Below are positions 45,202 to 62,104 of a stretch of 64,000 nucleotides of DNA, one piece after another. Positions within the stretch are counted from its first letter, which is position 1. Each line of letters begins with the position of its first letter. The DNA is from Dehalococcoidia bacterium (GTDB lineage: Bacteria; Chloroflexota; Dehalococcoidia; UBA6926). Under the pieces are notes generated by a model. It saw nothing but the letters and a program-made list of their open reading frames with translations, made no database searches and had not been told where the DNA came from. Position numbers and translations under genes: made by a program. The stretch spans positions 1,058,313 through 1,122,312 of the forward strand of contig OY762213.1 of assembly GCA_963665385.1 (NCBI GenBank), read 5' to 3'.

Positions 45202-46209
45202 GTGAGGCAAATGATGGCAAGCTACCAGCCTAATGCAGACGACTATATCTGGCCGGGCTTTCCCTGCGTTACTTTTCCAGGAGGAGGTCTCAACGGAATC
45301 GTCCAAGTTGAAGACTCCCCGAGATCAGGTGGGGGTTACACGATTGATTTTGTTGGCAGGATGAGAATTCAAGATCGTAATCTCCTTCTTCATCATCGCG
45401 CTCTTTTGACTTCAATGCTGATTGACTTGCGGGAGCAAGGTGAGCAGTGGCCACAGGTAACAGTCGATCTAATCAACAGAGCAATTTCGGCTCAACCAAT
45501 GTCAGTAGATGAGCGGGCAGTTAGACTCCTTCGCTTCTTAGCAGGCTCGACCACCGAAATAGGCAAGGCATATAACATAGATCGTGGTATGCACCAATTG
45601 CTCGCTTGGTCAGAATCCACGAGCGCAGGCGAAGTTGGTTACTTAGTAGACTATCTCATTAATCAAGAATGGCTCGCTGGAGTTGCAGGAGCTAAGGCGC
45701 GCTATGGTGATTACCTAGTCCCTAGTGATATCAGAGTCACAGTCAGCGGACACCGGAAAGTCGCGAATGAGAGTGCGCTAGTTCAATCTGCTCAAGGATT
45801 TGTCGCAATGTGGTTGGGTGAATCTATAGCGGATGTGTACGAGAGCGGAATTCGGCCCGCCATAGATGATTCAGGCTTCAAGCCGATGCGAATAGACCAA
45901 GAGAACTTCACTGAGAGAATCGAAGACAGAATCATCGCAGAAATACGGCGGTCGCGATTTCTGGTAGCCGACTTTACACATGATGCAAGAGGGGCTCGTG
46001 GCAGTGTCTATTATGAGGCCGGTTTTGCACATGGGCTTGGCTTAGACGTTATCTTCACTTGTCAACGTGACCAGGTGGACGAGCTTCACTTTGATACTAG
46101 TCACTACCCACACATCACCTGGACATCTCCCGAAGATCTACGAAACCAACTTACGACTCGTATTCTGGCGGTAATCGGAGAAGGGCCCCTAACGCAGTCC
46201 GTTCAATAA
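45202..46209 (+). CDS. Low-GC acquired gene: an unknown N-terminal domain of about 210 aa fused to a C-terminal DNPH1/Rcl/nucleoside-2-deoxyribosyltransferase-like (TIR-related Rossmannoid) domain
   Basis: Codon and GC composition are clearly lower than the flanks (about 40-50% versus about 65%). The C-terminus has RSRFLVADFT...GSVYYEAGFAHGLGLDVIF, matching the NDT/DNPH1 catalytic-glutamate motif (ADVVVAEVT...GVGYELGRAVA). I recognise nothing in the N-terminal half. Confidence 0.6.
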   Translation: MRQMMASYQPNADDYIWPGFPCVTFPGGGLNGIVQVEDSPRSGGGYTIDFVGRMRIQDRNLLLHHRALLTSMLIDLREQGEQWPQVTVDLINRAISAQPMSVDERAVRLLRFLAGSTTEIGKAYNIDRGMHQLLAWSESTSAGEVGYLVDYLINQEWLAGVAGAKARYGDYLVPSDIRVTVSGHRKVANESALVQSAQGFVAMWLGESIADVYESGIRPAIDDSGFKPMRIDQENFTERIEDRIIAEIRRSRFLVADFTHDARGARGSVYYEAGFAHGLGLDVIFTCQRDQVDELHFDTSHYPHITWTSPEDLRNQLTTRILAVIGEGPLTQSVQ

Positions 46210-56672: not shown

Positions 56673-59099
56673 ATGACGGGTACGAACGACAACGGCAATT
56701 CCAACACCGATCAACAGGGCGCGCTCAACCACCTGCGAATCATCGAGTACGGTGACATTCCCGCCTCATACGCCGCACGATGGCTTGGCGACCTCGGCGC
56801 GGACATCATAAAAGTTGAGCCGCCCGGCGGTGATCCCAACCGTCACCTGCCCCCATTCGCCGGCAACGTCCAGGACCCGGAGCGCAGCCTCGCGTTCATC
56901 AACGCCAACCTCAACAAGCGTTCCATCGTGCTCGACATCATTGACTCCGATGCCGACCGCCAAAGCTTTGTCGACCTGCTGGTGGGTGCTGACGCCCTAA
57001 TCGAGGCCACGCCCCCAGGCACACTCGAGTCCATCGGCCTCACACAGGAGTCGTTGCTGGGGCGCAATCCCCACCTCGTCACAACATCAATGACCCCATT
57101 CGGCCAGTGGGGCCCCTATTCCGATTACAAGGGCAGCCACGCCGTCATTGAAGCCATCTCCGGATTCATGAGCGCCCACGGTGATGACACAATGCCGCCG
57201 GTCGCGACACCCGCCCACCAGACCTACCAGGTCGCCGCCGTCCATGCCGCCTACCTCACACTTGCCGGCATCCGCCATGCCCGCCTCACCGGCGCAGGAC
57301 AGCGCATCGATCTCTCCATCGCAGAGGCCACAACCTACATGGGTTCCAGCGCCATCGCCCGATACACGCAACGCAGCGAGATTGTGGAGCGCAACGGCTC
57401 CAAGCCCCAGGGCGGCGCATCAAACATCTTCCGCTGCAGGGACGGCCGCTACGTCTATCTCTCCATCTACATCCTCCCCCACTGGCACCTAATCACGCGT
57501 GAATGGATGGAGGATGCCGTCCTCTCCGCTCCCGAGTGGGACGACCAGGAATATCGCGGCGCGAACGATGACGTCATCAACGCCATATTCCAGTCGTTCA
57601 TCGAGCAGTTCGACGCCGATGAGTTCGTGGAGGAATGTCAGCGCCGTGGCCTGCCCTGCGCACCCGTCAACACGCCCGGCGATTTCCTTACCAGCCCGCA
57701 GCTCACCCACCGCCAATGGATCCAGGAGCTGGAGCATCCCGTCATTGGCAAGTACCGCGCCCCCGGCTTCCTCTTCAAGATGAATGAGACGCCAATGCGC
57801 GCATGGCGACACTCACCCAAGCTTGGTGAGCACCAGCAGGAAATCCTGGCCGAAGCGCAAAACAAACGGCAACCCATCGCCGCCTCCGCCTCTCGCAACG
57901 GCCACGCGCAGGATGAATCCATGCTCGCCGGTGTCCGCGTTGCCGACCTCACCCGCTTCTTTGCAGGCCCCATCGGCACCATGTTCCTTGGCTTCTACGG
58001 CGCGGAGGTCATCAAGGTTGAATCGGAGCTGCTCGTCGCCAATCGTGACGCCAATGGCCCCCTCTACCCTGACATGAACCGCAACAAACTCAGCGCGACC
58101 ATCGATCTGCGTCATGAGGACGGCAAGAAACTCATGGACAGCCTGCTCAAGGAGAGTGATGTCTTCGTTGACAATTTTTCTCCGCGCGTGATCGACCGCC
58201 TTGGCTTTGGGTGGGAGCACAACCGTGAGGTCAACCCCGGTGTCGTCCAGATTACCGCGCCCGGCATGGGGCTGGACGGTCCCCTCACCTCGTGGGTCAC
58301 GTGGGGCAATCAACTCGTCGCCTACACCGGCCTCTGCTCCATGTGGGGATTCAAGGAATCGGAGATGGCCGCGCACGGCAAGCTCGTCATACCGGACTAT
58401 CTCGGCGCCAGCCTCATCGCCCTATCATCCATCTCTGCGCTCGAATACCGCGACCGCACCGGCAAGGGACAGTTTATTGAACTCGCGCAGGTGGAGGCGC
58501 AGGGCGCAATCATGGGCCCAGCCATCCTGGATTCCACTGTCAACGGAAACGAATGGGAAGCGATGGGCTACAACGAGGTCCTCGGCAGACACTACGCTCC
58601 CTACGGGGCATATCCCTGCAAGGGCGACGATGAATGGATTGTCGTAGCCGTAGAGACAGACGAGGAGTGGCAGGGTTTCGTGCAGGCGATGGGTTCACCG
58701 ACCTGGGCACAGGATCCCGCCTACTCCACCCATGGCGGCCGTGTTGCCGCAAAAGACGATCTCGACGCACAGATCGGCGATTGGACGCGCGCCTACACCA
58801 AGCGGCAGGCCATGCGAATCCTGCAGAAGAACGGCGTCCCGGCCGCCGCCAAGTATACCGGCGAAGACCTCTATTCAGACGTCCACTTCCGCCAGCGCGG
58901 ACACATCGTCGATGTCCATGAGCCGCCGTGGGGCGACCTCTCCCACCAGGGCCTCCCGGGCATCCCCTCGCTGGCCGAAGCGCACGGCGACGGCCCCCCG
59001 CCCTGGATCGGCGTTCACAACGACTACGTCTTCAAGACCCTGCTGAGCCTCACCGACGAAGACTACGCAGAAGGCCAAAACTCCGGCGCCATCCGCTAA
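56673..59099 (+). CDS. Fusion of two family III CoA-transferase (CaiB/BaiF) domains
   Basis: Two consecutive CoA_transf_3 units: LRIIEYGDIPASYAARWLGDLGADIIKVEPPGG..., and LAGVRVADLTRFFAGPIGTMFLGFYGAEVIKVES...; 808 aa. Confidence 0.8.
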   Translation: MTGTNDNGNSNTDQQGALNHLRIIEYGDIPASYAARWLGDLGADIIKVEPPGGDPNRHLPPFAGNVQDPERSLAFINANLNKRSIVLDIIDSDADRQSFVDLLVGADALIEATPPGTLESIGLTQESLLGRNPHLVTTSMTPFGQWGPYSDYKGSHAVIEAISGFMSAHGDDTMPPVATPAHQTYQVAAVHAAYLTLAGIRHARLTGAGQRIDLSIAEATTYMGSSAIARYTQRSEIVERNGSKPQGGASNIFRCRDGRYVYLSIYILPHWHLITREWMEDAVLSAPEWDDQEYRGANDDVINAIFQSFIEQFDADEFVEECQRRGLPCAPVNTPGDFLTSPQLTHRQWIQELEHPVIGKYRAPGFLFKMNETPMRAWRHSPKLGEHQQEILAEAQNKRQPIAASASRNGHAQDESMLAGVRVADLTRFFAGPIGTMFLGFYGAEVIKVESELLVANRDANGPLYPDMNRNKLSATIDLRHEDGKKLMDSLLKESDVFVDNFSPRVIDRLGFGWEHNREVNPGVVQITAPGMGLDGPLTSWVTWGNQLVAYTGLCSMWGFKESEMAAHGKLVIPDYLGASLIALSSISALEYRDRTGKGQFIELAQVEAQGAIMGPAILDSTVNGNEWEAMGYNEVLGRHYAPYGAYPCKGDDEWIVVAVETDEEWQGFVQAMGSPTWAQDPAYSTHGGRVAAKDDLDAQIGDWTRAYTKRQAMRILQKNGVPAAAKYTGEDLYSDVHFRQRGHIVDVHEPPWGDLSHQGLPGIPSLAEAHGDGPPPWIGVHNDYVFKTLLSLTDEDYAEGQNSGAIR

Positions 59100-59155
59100 C
59101 CACAGTACCCTCCCCCCCTCTGTGCTACAGTACCAGCGCAAAAGGACGTGCTCAG

Positions 59156-62104
59156 ATGCCCCCCACGGCCCGGATAACCTTTACGCTCGCCGCTGCATTG
59201 GCGGCGCTGATTCTCGTACTGGCCGCGTGCGAAAGCCCAACCCCAACTCCGACACCTCCCCCCTCCCCAACCCCAACGCCTGAGCCGACACCTGAGCCGG
59301 CCCCCGTGGAGCGTCTGGCCTGGTTCGATGCGCCGACAGATGTCCCGCATTGGGTCGCGTGGAGCGCGCTTCGCCGAATGGCTATTGACGACGAGCCCCT
59401 GAGCCAGCAGATAGCCTCGCTCGAGTGGGTGATTGACGGCATAACCGCCGAAGAGGCCGGTGCCCTCGACGACTTATCTTGGCTTCTTCGAGAGAATCCT
59501 GACATCGCTGCTACAGCCCTGAACCTGCCGTGGATGGCGACGAACGGCGACATTACCCCGGATGACCGGCGCGCCATCCGCGCCGCAGCGGATGCCGACG
59601 CCGAACTCGGCGCTGAGCTTGCCGCCTACGGCTGGCTCCCGGATGGAGCCACGACAGTTGAAGCCGATGCATTGGAAACCCTCGGAGAAATCGTTGCTCC
59701 CGGATTCACCACCCAGACCGCTACCGGCATCGGCGCGATGCGAATAGACCGCTCCGACAGTGGTGCACCGCCATTAGTCTCCCCTGGAAGGCTTGAATTC
59801 GCCTTGTCTCTCTCTCAATTCTCCTGGATGCAAGACGACGTAACATCGCCTGAAAGTGAATTTATCGCCAACCTCAGCGAATTCACTGAAACGGTCGGCA
59901 GCCACCATGCTGACGCGGTGGACACTATCGCGTCCTATGACTGGGTCCAGGACGGGATAGCAACGGACGAGCCTGATTCGCTGTTGAGCTATGGGCCCCT
60001 CTTCGAGGCTGCAGGCGAGGAAGACGGCGATGTACTGGAGATCATCCTCGAATACGAGTGGATTGCAGATAACCTGCTTTCAACTGAAACGCGCTATGTT
60101 GGGATACTCACTTCCCTCCTCAACGCCGGTTCTGCTGATGATGCCGACGTAATTCGAACAATGGTTAGCTACCGTTGGCTCGCGGGCTCGATCAATCCCC
60201 CTGAATATGTCCTGCTCAATGAATTCACCAATCTTCTGCGCGTGGAGGAAACCGAAGGAGCGGATTATCGTCAAGACATACTGGGTTTTGACTGGCTCTC
60301 GGACGAAGTCACCACCGAAGAAATCGCCGGTTTCCAGCTCCTGTCCAATTCCGTCGAACACCTCTTGCCGCAACGCCCGGACGCCCTGGATTCCCTGCTC
60401 GCATATGAATGGCTGCAGGATGATGTCCGGGAAGACGAAGTTTCCTCAATCCGCGCATTGGGGCGAGTTATTGGACACTACGGTGTCGATACCGACGACT
60501 TCATCGGCGCTTTAGTCGCACGACCCTGGCTGCGCGACGGCGTACAGGAGAACGAAGATCGGCTTCTGGACGAATACGACGACTACTTGTCTTATGAACG
60601 TCCTCCTGACACTACCGTGCCGTCGCGCCTCGCAACGTACCCGTGGCTGGATGATGGTATAGCAGACATTGAATTGTGGTTCATTGACTCAGCAATGACC
60701 TTCCATCGTGAGTTCTCCTCAATCGCTCCCGAAACCGCTAATGCCATCATCCAGAATTCAGGATTGGATCCTGATTCCCTTGAAGGTGTTATAGACATAT
60801 TCTGGAACTTCAGAGAGGTCGTAGCTGCATCCAATTCAGTGTATGACGGCAACCTTACTCTCGAAATTACTCGCCTCCCCTGGTTGTTTGATGGCATGGA
60901 ACGTTTGGAAGGTCGGTGGTTGTCCGAATACGCCTGGCTCTTGCGTGAGCTCGATGGAGGGAACGAGGAATTGGCGCGTTCCCTACTCGCTCGGCCGTGG
61001 GCTCGCGACGGAATCTCAGCCCAGGAGCAGGAATGGACGCATCAGTATCGCCGCCTTTTGGAGGAAATACCCGCAGAATCCCGCGGAATGGCACTCGAAT
61101 TCGCTGACTTCCCTTGGTTTCAGGAGCAGATTGATTTCATGGCGGCGGGAATCATGGGCAGAGTGGCCCTCCTCGCCCTCAATAACGATCCGGTTATTAC
61201 TGACCAGAATTGGTTCGGTGAAGGGATCAGCGAGTCGGACGTGATTAGGCTAATTGCCCTCCTTGACGCGAAAGCCCGTTCCAAATTCCAGTACGAGGAT
61301 CTATTGGAACAGAACCATATTGCTCAACGGACTGTAACACTCCCACTCGCCGGTGACGTTGGGCTGTACGTCGTACGGCACACGGAGTTCCCGGATGACG
61401 ACCCCACGCTTGACTTGATGGAGCAGGTTATCGTGCACCTCGAAGAGTTCATGGGCGTGCCGTTTCCCCGCAATCCATCCATCACACTGATTATCGAACC
61501 CAGCACTCGGGCGGGAGAAACGCCGCAATTCGGCGTGGCGTACGCCGCCTTATCGCACATTGTTTCCTCCGCCCCTCGCCATAACCCCGGCTTCCATCTT
61601 GCCATCTTTCATGAAATGTCCCACCTGTATTGGGGGGGCCACAACGGCGCCCTGCCATGGTGGAATGAAGGCGCGGCGGGCTTTCTGCCGGACATCGCGC
61701 GGGACGCGCTGGGACATGAAACCCTGGAAGAGCGGCACCATCAACTGCTGTGGGACACGCGAAACGGTTGCTGGCATCAGGGCGTCACTACTATTTCCAG
61801 GTTTTACCACTTGCAGAAAACGCAGCCGCAAGTTGCGCGAGATCGCGGAATCTGCATCTACGCCCTTGGCGAGATATTCCTGATGGAGATGTACCTGCTA
61901 TTGGGTCGGGATGCCACATCCGCCGCGATGCGACAGATATACGTTGATGCCCGTGACTCCGGTTGGCTTGATCCCATCACGGATCAGCAAATCTATGACG
62001 CGTTTCGGGCCAACACGCCGGATGATAAATTCGATGACTTCCGCAGATTGTTCCTGCGCCTCCACGGCGGCTCCCGCGTCGACCTCTCCGAATCGGCCCC
62101 CTAG
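59156..62104 (+). CDS. Large secreted lipoprotein with about 17 copies of a short W-x-D-G repeat and a C-terminal M1-like gluzincin metallopeptidase domain
   Basis: Signal peptide plus lipobox (ALILVLAAC) and a Pro/Thr linker. Repeats of the form Y/F-x-W-[LVI]-x-D-G-[IV]-x-x-x-E (for example YDWVQDGIATDE, YEWLQDDVREDE, RPWLRDGVQENE). C-terminal HEMSHLYW...WWNEGAAGF matches the M1 HExxH-x(n)-E (HELAHQW...WLNEGFA) signature. The repeat region is low-GC. ATG 59156 chosen over the track's 58928, which overlaps the CaiB gene. Confidence 0.7.
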   Translation: MPPTARITFTLAAALAALILVLAACESPTPTPTPPPSPTPTPEPTPEPAPVERLAWFDAPTDVPHWVAWSALRRMAIDDEPLSQQIASLEWVIDGITAEEAGALDDLSWLLRENPDIAATALNLPWMATNGDITPDDRRAIRAAADADAELGAELAAYGWLPDGATTVEADALETLGEIVAPGFTTQTATGIGAMRIDRSDSGAPPLVSPGRLEFALSLSQFSWMQDDVTSPESEFIANLSEFTETVGSHHADAVDTIASYDWVQDGIATDEPDSLLSYGPLFEAAGEEDGDVLEIILEYEWIADNLLSTETRYVGILTSLLNAGSADDADVIRTMVSYRWLAGSINPPEYVLLNEFTNLLRVEETEGADYRQDILGFDWLSDEVTTEEIAGFQLLSNSVEHLLPQRPDALDSLLAYEWLQDDVREDEVSSIRALGRVIGHYGVDTDDFIGALVARPWLRDGVQENEDRLLDEYDDYLSYERPPDTTVPSRLATYPWLDDGIADIELWFIDSAMTFHREFSSIAPETANAIIQNSGLDPDSLEGVIDIFWNFREVVAASNSVYDGNLTLEITRLPWLFDGMERLEGRWLSEYAWLLRELDGGNEELARSLLARPWARDGISAQEQEWTHQYRRLLEEIPAESRGMALEFADFPWFQEQIDFMAAGIMGRVALLALNNDPVITDQNWFGEGISESDVIRLIALLDAKARSKFQYEDLLEQNHIAQRTVTLPLAGDVGLYVVRHTEFPDDDPTLDLMEQVIVHLEEFMGVPFPRNPSITLIIEPSTRAGETPQFGVAYAALSHIVSSAPRHNPGFHLAIFHEMSHLYWGGHNGALPWWNEGAAGFLPDIARDALGHETLEERHHQLLWDTRNGCWHQGVTTISRFYHLQKTQPQVARDRGICIYALGEIFLMEMYLLLGRDATSAAMRQIYVDARDSGWLDPITDQQIYDAFRANTPDDKFDDFRRLFLRLHGGSRVDLSESAP

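Follow-up and report, generated by a model that had tools for sequence, protein, structure and literature searches.

A predicted Dehalococcoidia lipoprotein joining 39-residue helical repeats to a divergent M1-like zinc peptidase domain

Background

Metallopeptidases of family M1 (MEROPS M1, PF01433), such as PepN, ERAP1 and LTA4 hydrolase, carry an HExxH motif on an active-site helix and a glutamate on the next helix (HExxH-x18-E), a tyrosine within a Y-x-x-G...L-L-G motif, a GxMEN motif and an N-terminal beta-sandwich domain I, and their catalytic domain is accompanied by a helical-repeat domain on its C-terminal side (ERAP1_C, LTA4H_C). The beta domain and GxMEN normally close the S1 side and anchor the amino terminus of the substrate. 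Helical solenoids of the ARM, HEAT and PUF types are built from tandem units of about 36-42 residues, each of two or three helices, stacked into a superhelix. Here we describe a gene on the forward strand of a 64,000-nucleotide stretch of contig OY762213.1 from a Dehalococcoidia bacterium (the whole stretch is called the window below), whose 982-aa product joins an array of helical repeats to a distant relative of the M1 catalytic domain. We consider it probable that the protein is a surface-tethered, M1-derived zinc peptidase on a variable acidic solenoid that serves as both spacer and capture surface. It is not a categorically new system: the metallopeptidase is M1-like and divergent, and what is new about it are its accessory repeat and the order of its domains; our literature search found no description of a family combining this repeat with this peptidase.

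A divergent M1-like catalytic domain

The C-terminal part of the protein contains the following features.

61301..62101, + strand: M1-like gluzincin catalytic domain, residues 716-982
61610..61624, + strand: HEMSH, residues 819-823, the two predicted zinc-binding histidines and the catalytic glutamate (invariance; PepN alignment)
61667..61669, + strand: E838 of WWNEG, presumed third zinc ligand (invariant; aligned to PepN E320)
61769..61855, + strand: span from C872 to C900, probable disulfide (cysteine positions, invariance)
61859..61861, + strand: Y902 in C-I-Y-A-L-G-E...L-L-L-G, presumed transition-state-stabilising tyrosine (conserved in at least 90%; PepN Y381)

The two histidines and the glutamate of HExxH and the E-G pair of xEGxAGF, which reads WWNEGAAGF at residues 835-843, are invariant in all homologs that have the domain (26/26), and the catalytic motifs are kept in distant members such as P0031-P0033. 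An AlphaFold2 (AF2) model of residues 700-982, made with 22 homologs, reached a mean predicted local distance difference test score (pLDDT) of 85.9 and a predicted template modelling score (pTM) of 0.85, and shows a five-stranded sheet, an active-site helix with HEMSH and a following helix with E838, which is the layout of thermolysin-like gluzincins. Foldseek searches of the PDB with this model returned ERAP1, an M61 enzyme, the two-domain M1 enzyme of D. radiodurans and LTA4 hydrolase (probability 1.0, template modelling score 0.5-0.6, 12-16% identity). When 137 C-domains of the wider family were combined into a profile and aligned with residues 190-460 of E. coli PepN, HEMSH fell on HEYFH, so that H819/E820/H823 were paired with H297/E298/H301, and E838 was paired with E320 and Y902 with Y381 of V-Y-E-K-G...T-L-L-G, at a score of 22.8 compared with 13.5 +/- 2.0 for 100 shuffles (maximum 19.0). 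Together, sequence and predicted structure indicate that the C-domain is genuinely, though distantly, related to the catalytic domain of M1 enzymes and has the full set of catalytic residues.

A preliminary description of this DNA had recognised an M1 zinc-binding signature here and had made its reading depend on a structurally plausible HExxH+E site. The model has HEMSH and E838 on successive helices, and both HExxH and the glutamate of NEG are invariant; the canonical M1 spacing did not hold, since 14 residues rather than 18 separate HExxH from the glutamate (10-13 in distant relatives, hence x10-14 across the superfamily). In the region equivalent to GxMEN the protein reads A-G-E-T-P-Q-F-G-V-A-Y, of which G88/E89/P91 (domain numbering) are kept only in the close family, while the wider superfamily has G-x-H-[IV]. 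In place of domain I, everything N-terminal of the catalytic domain is all-alpha in the models, so the helical repeats stand on the opposite side from those of M1 enzymes and belong to a different, 39-aa W-x-x-D-G-x-x-x-x-E type. With its N-terminal solenoid, its shorter metal-ligand spacing and neither domain I nor GxMEN, this architecture is not seen in M1 relatives, and the predicted lipid anchor also sets the protein apart from the M1 enzymes compared. C872 and C900 are the sole cysteines besides that of the lipobox, and both are invariant, which fits a disulfide in an exported protein.

Library searches with the single sequence and with a profile of 22 C-domains gave nothing meaningful for the full protein, the C-domain or the repeat region in Pfam, NCBIfam, PADLOC, PHROGs or PDB sequences. 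Matches to internalin K and TonB were set aside as low-complexity similarity of the Pro/Thr linker only. The equivalent domain of two distant relatives, P0196 and P0199, passes the Pfam M1 gathering threshold (30.6 and 31.4 bits, respectively, against 27.7).

An acidic, lysine-free array of 39-residue helical repeats

Between the linker and the catalytic domain the protein is made up almost throughout of repeats, which were delimited with a family-wide hidden Markov model (HMM).

59306..59707, + strand: conserved N-terminal helical part, residues 51-184 (HMM, invariant columns, all-alpha AF2 model); holds repeat units 1-3, of which those at residues 82-111 and 149-178 are significant and one around W126 is degenerate (HMM)
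59783..61069, + strand: core 39-aa repeat array, residues 210-638 (HMM, 39-aa spacing, AF2 model); ten significant units at residues 214-243, 252-283, 291-322, 330-361, 369-398, 408-437, 447-478, 488-513, 567-596 and 604-635, and one degenerate unit at residues ~522-561
61070..61300, + strand: degenerate terminal units (W654, W686) and connecting helix into the peptidase domain, residues 639-715 (sequence, model)

The anchor tryptophans form two runs, one at residues 224, 263, 302, 341, 380, 419, 458 and 497 and the other at 576, 615 and 654, with an exact period of 39 residues, which is also the commonest inter-unit spacing family-wide (265 of ~430 intervals). The HMM found 12 significant units in the window protein (independent E-values 1e-8 to 1e-12), with about four further degenerate units near W126 and residues 536, 654 and 686, and 9-17 units among the homologs. 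The preliminary description was therefore right about a regular repeat, whereas its unit of about 40 aa is exactly 39 and its count of about 17 is a mild over-count. Over 470 units, the tryptophan is conserved in 99%, the aspartate in 93%, the glycine in 60% and the glutamate in 88%; hydrophobic positions follow a helical periodicity and all remaining positions have high entropy. The units are 20-35% identical to one another, and Tandem Repeats Finder detected no 117-nt periodicity in the DNA, which indicates that the units are old and that the array is not a recent expansion.

The composition of the array is extreme. Residues 51-700 (59306-61255) contain no lysine in 650 positions, where ~14 would be expected from the mean of 2.16% in the other open reading frames (ORFs) of the window, and they combine 19.4% Asp plus Glu with a net charge of -88 and an isoelectric point of 4.05. 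The family as a whole is lysine-poor (0.1-1.3%).

The AF2 model of residues 51-716 (pLDDT 81.8, pTM 0.70) is entirely helical, and each unit comprises a helix of ~10 residues, a short helix of 4-5 residues bearing the tryptophan and a helix of ~15 residues; confidence is lower over residues 639-715 (helices H590-600 to H643-662 of the model, pLDDT 54-66). The array is thus predicted to be an all-alpha solenoid with three helices per unit, and its 12 units, of similar length and with one recurring helical pattern, have what generally marks an alpha-solenoid. They resemble ARM, HEAT and PUF-type solenoids in their tandem helical design, here with three predicted helices in 39 residues. The structural matches of the solenoid in the PDB are designed repeat proteins only, the closest of them rod-like or flat, and superposition on solved natural proteins of the ARM, HEAT, TPR, PUF and Sel1 types gave no match. 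By sequence, no known alpha-solenoid repeat family was matched: Pfam at E = 10 gave unrelated sub-threshold matches alone, namely Lpg0393_VPS9 (23.9 bits, threshold 27) and Ribonucleas_3_2, and NCBIfam gave none. Two expectations of the preliminary description, that the repeat forms a solenoid and that it belongs to no named family, agree with these results, the former through the predicted helical fold. Asp-Gly pairs act as helix stops and [ST]-x-x-E as a capping box. In the repeat, the conserved tryptophan would accordingly be packed in the core, Asp-Gly would end the short middle helix and [ST]-x-x-Glu would cap the long one; with the conserved residues taken up by structure, the exposed positions may be free to vary.

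A lipoprotein N-terminus

The start of the gene and of its product is laid out as follows.

58928..62104, + strand: open reading frame (ORF list)
59142..59146, + strand: Shine-Dalgarno-like AAGGA, 9 nt 5' of the ATG (read from the sequence)
59156..62104, + strand: whole gene, 982 codons plus stop (ORF list)
59156..59230, + strand: predicted signal peptide with lipobox L22-A23-A24-C25, the latter at nucleotides 59219-59230 (sequence; homolog conservation)
59231..59305, + strand: Pro/Thr-rich linker, residues 26-50 (sequence; 6-nt CCCAAC periodicity at 59236-59277 by Tandem Repeats Finder)

We take the ATG at 59156, which yields the 982-aa product, as the start codon because of the AAGGA site upstream, the signal peptide and the presence of an identical 982-aa sequence in a public protein collection. 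The N-terminus, MPPTAR-ITFTLAAALAALILV-LAAC, has, as judged from its letters, the positive n-region, hydrophobic h-region and lipobox ([LVI][ASTVI][GAS]C) of bacterial lipoproteins, and a [LVF][ATF][AG]C lipobox followed by a Pro/Thr linker is kept in nearly all full-length homologs. The protein would thus be exported, lipid-anchored at Cys25 and tethered at the surface, in line with the 982-aa lipoprotein with a signal and Pro/Thr linker, secreted or at the surface, that had been proposed before. A promoter and terminator scan found nothing exceeding shuffle expectation, and no second copy of the gene was found within the window.

One large family whose named members are all from Chloroflexota

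We searched 1.84 billion representative proteins (clusters at 50% identity) exhaustively with a profile of a two-unit repeat alignment, and obtained 1,502 matches at E <= 1e-3, 955 at E <= 1e-10 and 260 at E <= 1e-30. Among the best 145 of the 1,502, 125 (86%) were also matched by the C-domain HMM; in these top 145 the C-domain nearly always lies directly after the repeats, HExxH is present in most and a lipobox in many, and in a few the C-domain is flanked by repeats on either side or the peptidase domain occurs twice. Judged by this co-occurrence, repeat and peptidase domain form one obligate module, which the preliminary description overlooked. A word-indexed search with the protein gave ~30 close homologs and three distant ones, the latter with extra thioredoxin-like or leucine-rich repeat (LRR) domains around the same core of repeat plus C-domain. 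The two-unit alignment itself gave no matches in the word-indexed search and 1,502 in the exhaustive one, so that a figure of 34 homologs far understated the family.

All members with a source name come from Chloroflexota, and the GTDB genomes that contain the close family are all metagenome-assembled genomes (MAGs) of Dehalococcoidia/Chloroflexota, sometimes with two or three paralogs each. Chloroflexota MAG proteins with the same repeat followed by the same peptidase domain are annotated as 'hypothetical protein' or, in one case (MXY35671.1, the name given by NCBI), as 'M1 family metallopeptidase'. The window subfamily (~30 clusters) is set apart from the wider family by its strict 39-aa spacing, its fixed syntenic slot and the motif below. 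Extra Pfam domains among 37 long members were LRR (4), PPC (3) and Peptidase_M60 (1), which are typical accessory domains of secreted proteases or binding proteins. One distant metagenomic relative, P0031 (1705 aa), has an AhpC/redoxin domain and two additional HExxH...EG domains besides the repeat array and C-domain; these extra domains (HELLH, HELVH) are barely detected by the family C-domain profile. Paralogs outside the conserved slot were seen in L009 (3114-5894 and 7247-9550, close together on the same contig), L014, L005 and L008 (L numbers denote the related loci compared).

A single stretch outside the repeats stands out in the close family.

59711..59743, + strand: Q-T-A-T-G-I-G-A-M-R, residues 186-196 (homolog conservation; AF2 loop)

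As Q-T-[AV]-T-G-I-G-A-x-R it is invariant in 33/33 close homologs, solenoid-only ones included, and it is absent from the wider superfamily. In the model it is part of the one long loop predicted with low confidence (pLDDT < 50, model residues 135-155). It could serve as a latch, for docking or as a site of maturation.

Fast and mosaic evolution of the locus

The gene differs sharply from its neighbours in its rate of change. Relative to the window, L011 has neighbours at 96-99% amino acid identity and the target at ~60%; in L007 the corresponding values are 91-94% and 43% (29% in the repeats). In the comparison with the closest genome, L002, synonymous divergence (dS) is 0.19-0.36 for all genes, while the ratio of nonsynonymous to synonymous divergence (dN/dS) reaches 0.235 in the target, compared with 0.01-0.09 in its neighbours. 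These alignments indicate that the target diverges 5-20 times faster than the genes around it.

The gene is also mosaic. In a sliding-window comparison with L004 (4001-6958), the proportion of synonymous differences (pS) is 0.06-0.25 up to about residue 520 and 0.68-0.82 from there to the end, with dS at ~0.32 in the genes flanking the target; a jump in pS while flanking dS stays steady points to a recombination breakpoint, which lies near residue 520-560, and to allelic replacement of the 3' half. The ortholog in L011 (4001-6604, MAG APA_bin_32) has 868 aa and is without about three whole 39-aa units (window residues ~281-397). That in L006 (4010-6124, complete chromosome OZ243973.1) occupies the same syntenic slot and encodes a 704-aa solenoid-only protein: the reading frame closes precisely where the repeat array does, 16 bp short of the convergent neighbour, and the peptidase is cleanly absent. 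Similar solenoid-only forms recur in P0028-P0030, and dN/dS in the L006 repeats is 0.25. Taken together, the sequences mark the locus as a fast-evolving, recombining hotspot, a feature that the preliminary description missed.

The name APA_bin_32 follows the naming of genomes of Aplysina aerophoba sponge symbionts (PMC11706023). Judging from this MAG name, the window organism is probably a close relative of a sponge symbiont.

Functional interpretation

If the protein is a surface-tethered M1-derived peptidase on a variable solenoid, it would be exported as a lipoprotein and anchored at Cys25, and the Pro/Thr linker would hold its body off the membrane. The body would be a long, rigid and very acidic alpha-solenoid of ~16 39-residue units that runs without a flexible linker into the zinc metallopeptidase domain at its distal end. 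There, zinc would be bound by H819, H823 and E838, with E820 as the general base and Y902 stabilising the transition state. Since the N-terminal beta domain and GxMEN of M1 enzymes are both missing, internal cleavage of polypeptides is more likely than N-terminal trimming. The most likely purpose of the solenoid is twofold: to hold the enzyme out from the cell surface and, in view of the gene's dN/dS of 0.235, its repeat number of 9-17 and the mosaic breakpoint, to form a variable surface that captures a target protein or partner. Nothing speaks for the cell-wall-binding role that had been suggested for the array.

Several observations weigh against this reading. Neither the window protein nor its isolated C-domain matches Pfam Peptidase_M1 even at E = 10; the x14 spacing and the missing GxMEN imply that substrate positioning must differ from that of M1 enzymes, and activity is not to be assumed from the motifs. 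Furthermore, dN/dS is below 1 everywhere, so that relaxed constraint is inseparable from diversifying selection, and the peptidase-less L006 protein still looks constrained, which implies an independent role for the solenoid and a possibly secondary one for the peptidase. The last point leads to a possible, though less probable, explanation in which the solenoid is the principal part, a variable surface adhesin or receptor for a host or partner, with a role like that of eukaryote-like repeat proteins in sponge symbionts, and the peptidase an optional effector. Such a role is favoured by the solenoid-only gene of 704 aa in the same slot of a complete chromosome (L006) and its counterparts P0028-P0030, by a dN/dS of 0.25 in the L006 repeats that is similar to other orthologs, by repeats that are the most divergent part of the protein (29% identity to L007, against 91-94% for neighbours), and by changes in repeat number and mosaic recombination at the locus. 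The lysine-free 650 residues with a net charge of -88, the LRR arrays of some relatives and the sponge-type name of L011, a relative with near-identical context (APA_bin_32), point the same way. However, in 86% of the top 145 repeat proteins the peptidase domain is retained and its HExxH is intact, and the catalytic residues are invariant in the family, which argues that proteolysis is central rather than optional; the sponge origin of the window organism is itself read from a name.

Two further explanations are less likely than either the peptidase on a capturing solenoid or the adhesin. An array that is a passive spacer or stalk for a nutrient-scavenging extracellular peptidase, with no binding specificity, would suit the purely structural nature of the conserved repeat positions (W core, D-G turn, S/T-x-x-E cap), the rod-like or flat designed helical repeat proteins among the closest structural matches, the freely varying unit number (9 to 17) and the Pro/Thr linker, yet it leaves unexplained the persistence of solenoid-only variants, the invariant QTATGIGAxR loop motif, the extreme charge and absence of lysine, and the tight co-occurrence of this repeat and peptidase in ~1,500 clusters; we therefore regard it as improbable. 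We give very little weight to a catalytically dead C-domain that acts as a binding module, as in TAF2 with its M1-like fold: the non-canonical His-to-Glu spacing, the absent GxMEN and the missing Pfam M1 match would agree with it, but pseudo-enzymes normally lose their catalytic residues, whereas here H, E, H, E and Y vary little or not at all between homologs whose overall identity is 42-90%, and the catalytic residues are kept in distant superfamily members. A recent acquisition of the gene, considered with its base composition below, likewise falls behind the two leading explanations.

A more speculative proposal, which we hold to be doubtful, combines the elements. In this scheme, the solenoid would represent an as yet unrecognised class of hypervariable Chloroflexota scaffolds for display at the surface, carried here by a relative of a sponge symbiont, and its acidic, lysine-free and fast-recombining surface would set recognition of hosts, partners or phages; the peptidase would be a cargo that can be lost, and the QTATGIGAxR loop a latch or maturation site controlling that cargo. 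More generally, the undescribed helical repeat is common to ~1,500 metagenomic protein clusters, nearly always in fusion with a divergent zinc peptidase of the M1-like type, and with no Pfam or NCBIfam model for either part of the window protein, such genes are annotated as hypothetical. The gene, being the fast-evolving and recombining element of its neighbourhood, is a candidate through which interactions of uncultured Chloroflexota with hosts, phages or protein substrates could be studied. The 39-residue unit is regular and closest in structure to designed proteins, and may interest protein engineers as a natural scaffold.

Gene context and base composition

Upstream of the gene lie genes for an acyl carrier protein, a uracil-DNA glycosylase, RNase J and a double CoA-transferase III, and downstream a convergent GBBH-like gene and a GyrI-like gene; these are housekeeping genes without apparent functional link to the target. 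For the context we also used P0001, a protein 90% identical to the product of the target. The order RNase J, CoA-transferase, target, GBBH-like, GyrI-like is kept in six other Dehalococcoidia genomes. In this small-genome Dehalococcoidia lineage, probably closely related to an Aplysina aerophoba MAG, the gene is thus the fast-evolving, recombining element in a highly conserved housekeeping neighbourhood. The CoA-transferase neighbour (56673-59099, + strand) encodes 808 aa with two family III domains in one chain, and is 87-98% identical across related genomes.

The low G+C content (GC) reported earlier for the repeat region is real, at 0.53-0.55 over 59750-61250 compared with 0.60-0.65 in the flanks. 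GC at third codon positions (GC3) is 0.59 in the repeats and 0.63 over the whole gene, against a window mean of 0.724 (standard deviation 0.064), so that the dip is partly synonymous. Low GC and a GC3 of 0.59-0.63, where the remaining window has ~0.72, would be in keeping with a recently acquired foreign island, and horizontal acquisition had been raised in the preliminary description. We nevertheless rejected recent horizontal transfer as the cause of the dip and consider it extremely improbable. The identical slot and neighbours recur in the six other genomes, and all orthologs of the target have a GC3 of 0.61-0.68 where the neighbouring genes have 0.69-0.82, which makes the dip an old property of the gene; GC3 of the target is in any case only ~1.5 standard deviations below the window mean. 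Moreover, no mobile-element genes flank the target, the close family is confined to Dehalococcoidia MAGs, and the exchange that we observed took place between diverged alleles of the same gene. Elsewhere in the window, an ORF at 45202-46209 (+ strand, 335 aa) has a GC3 of 0.45, far below all others in the window (mean 0.72), which makes it a much stronger outlier in composition than the target.

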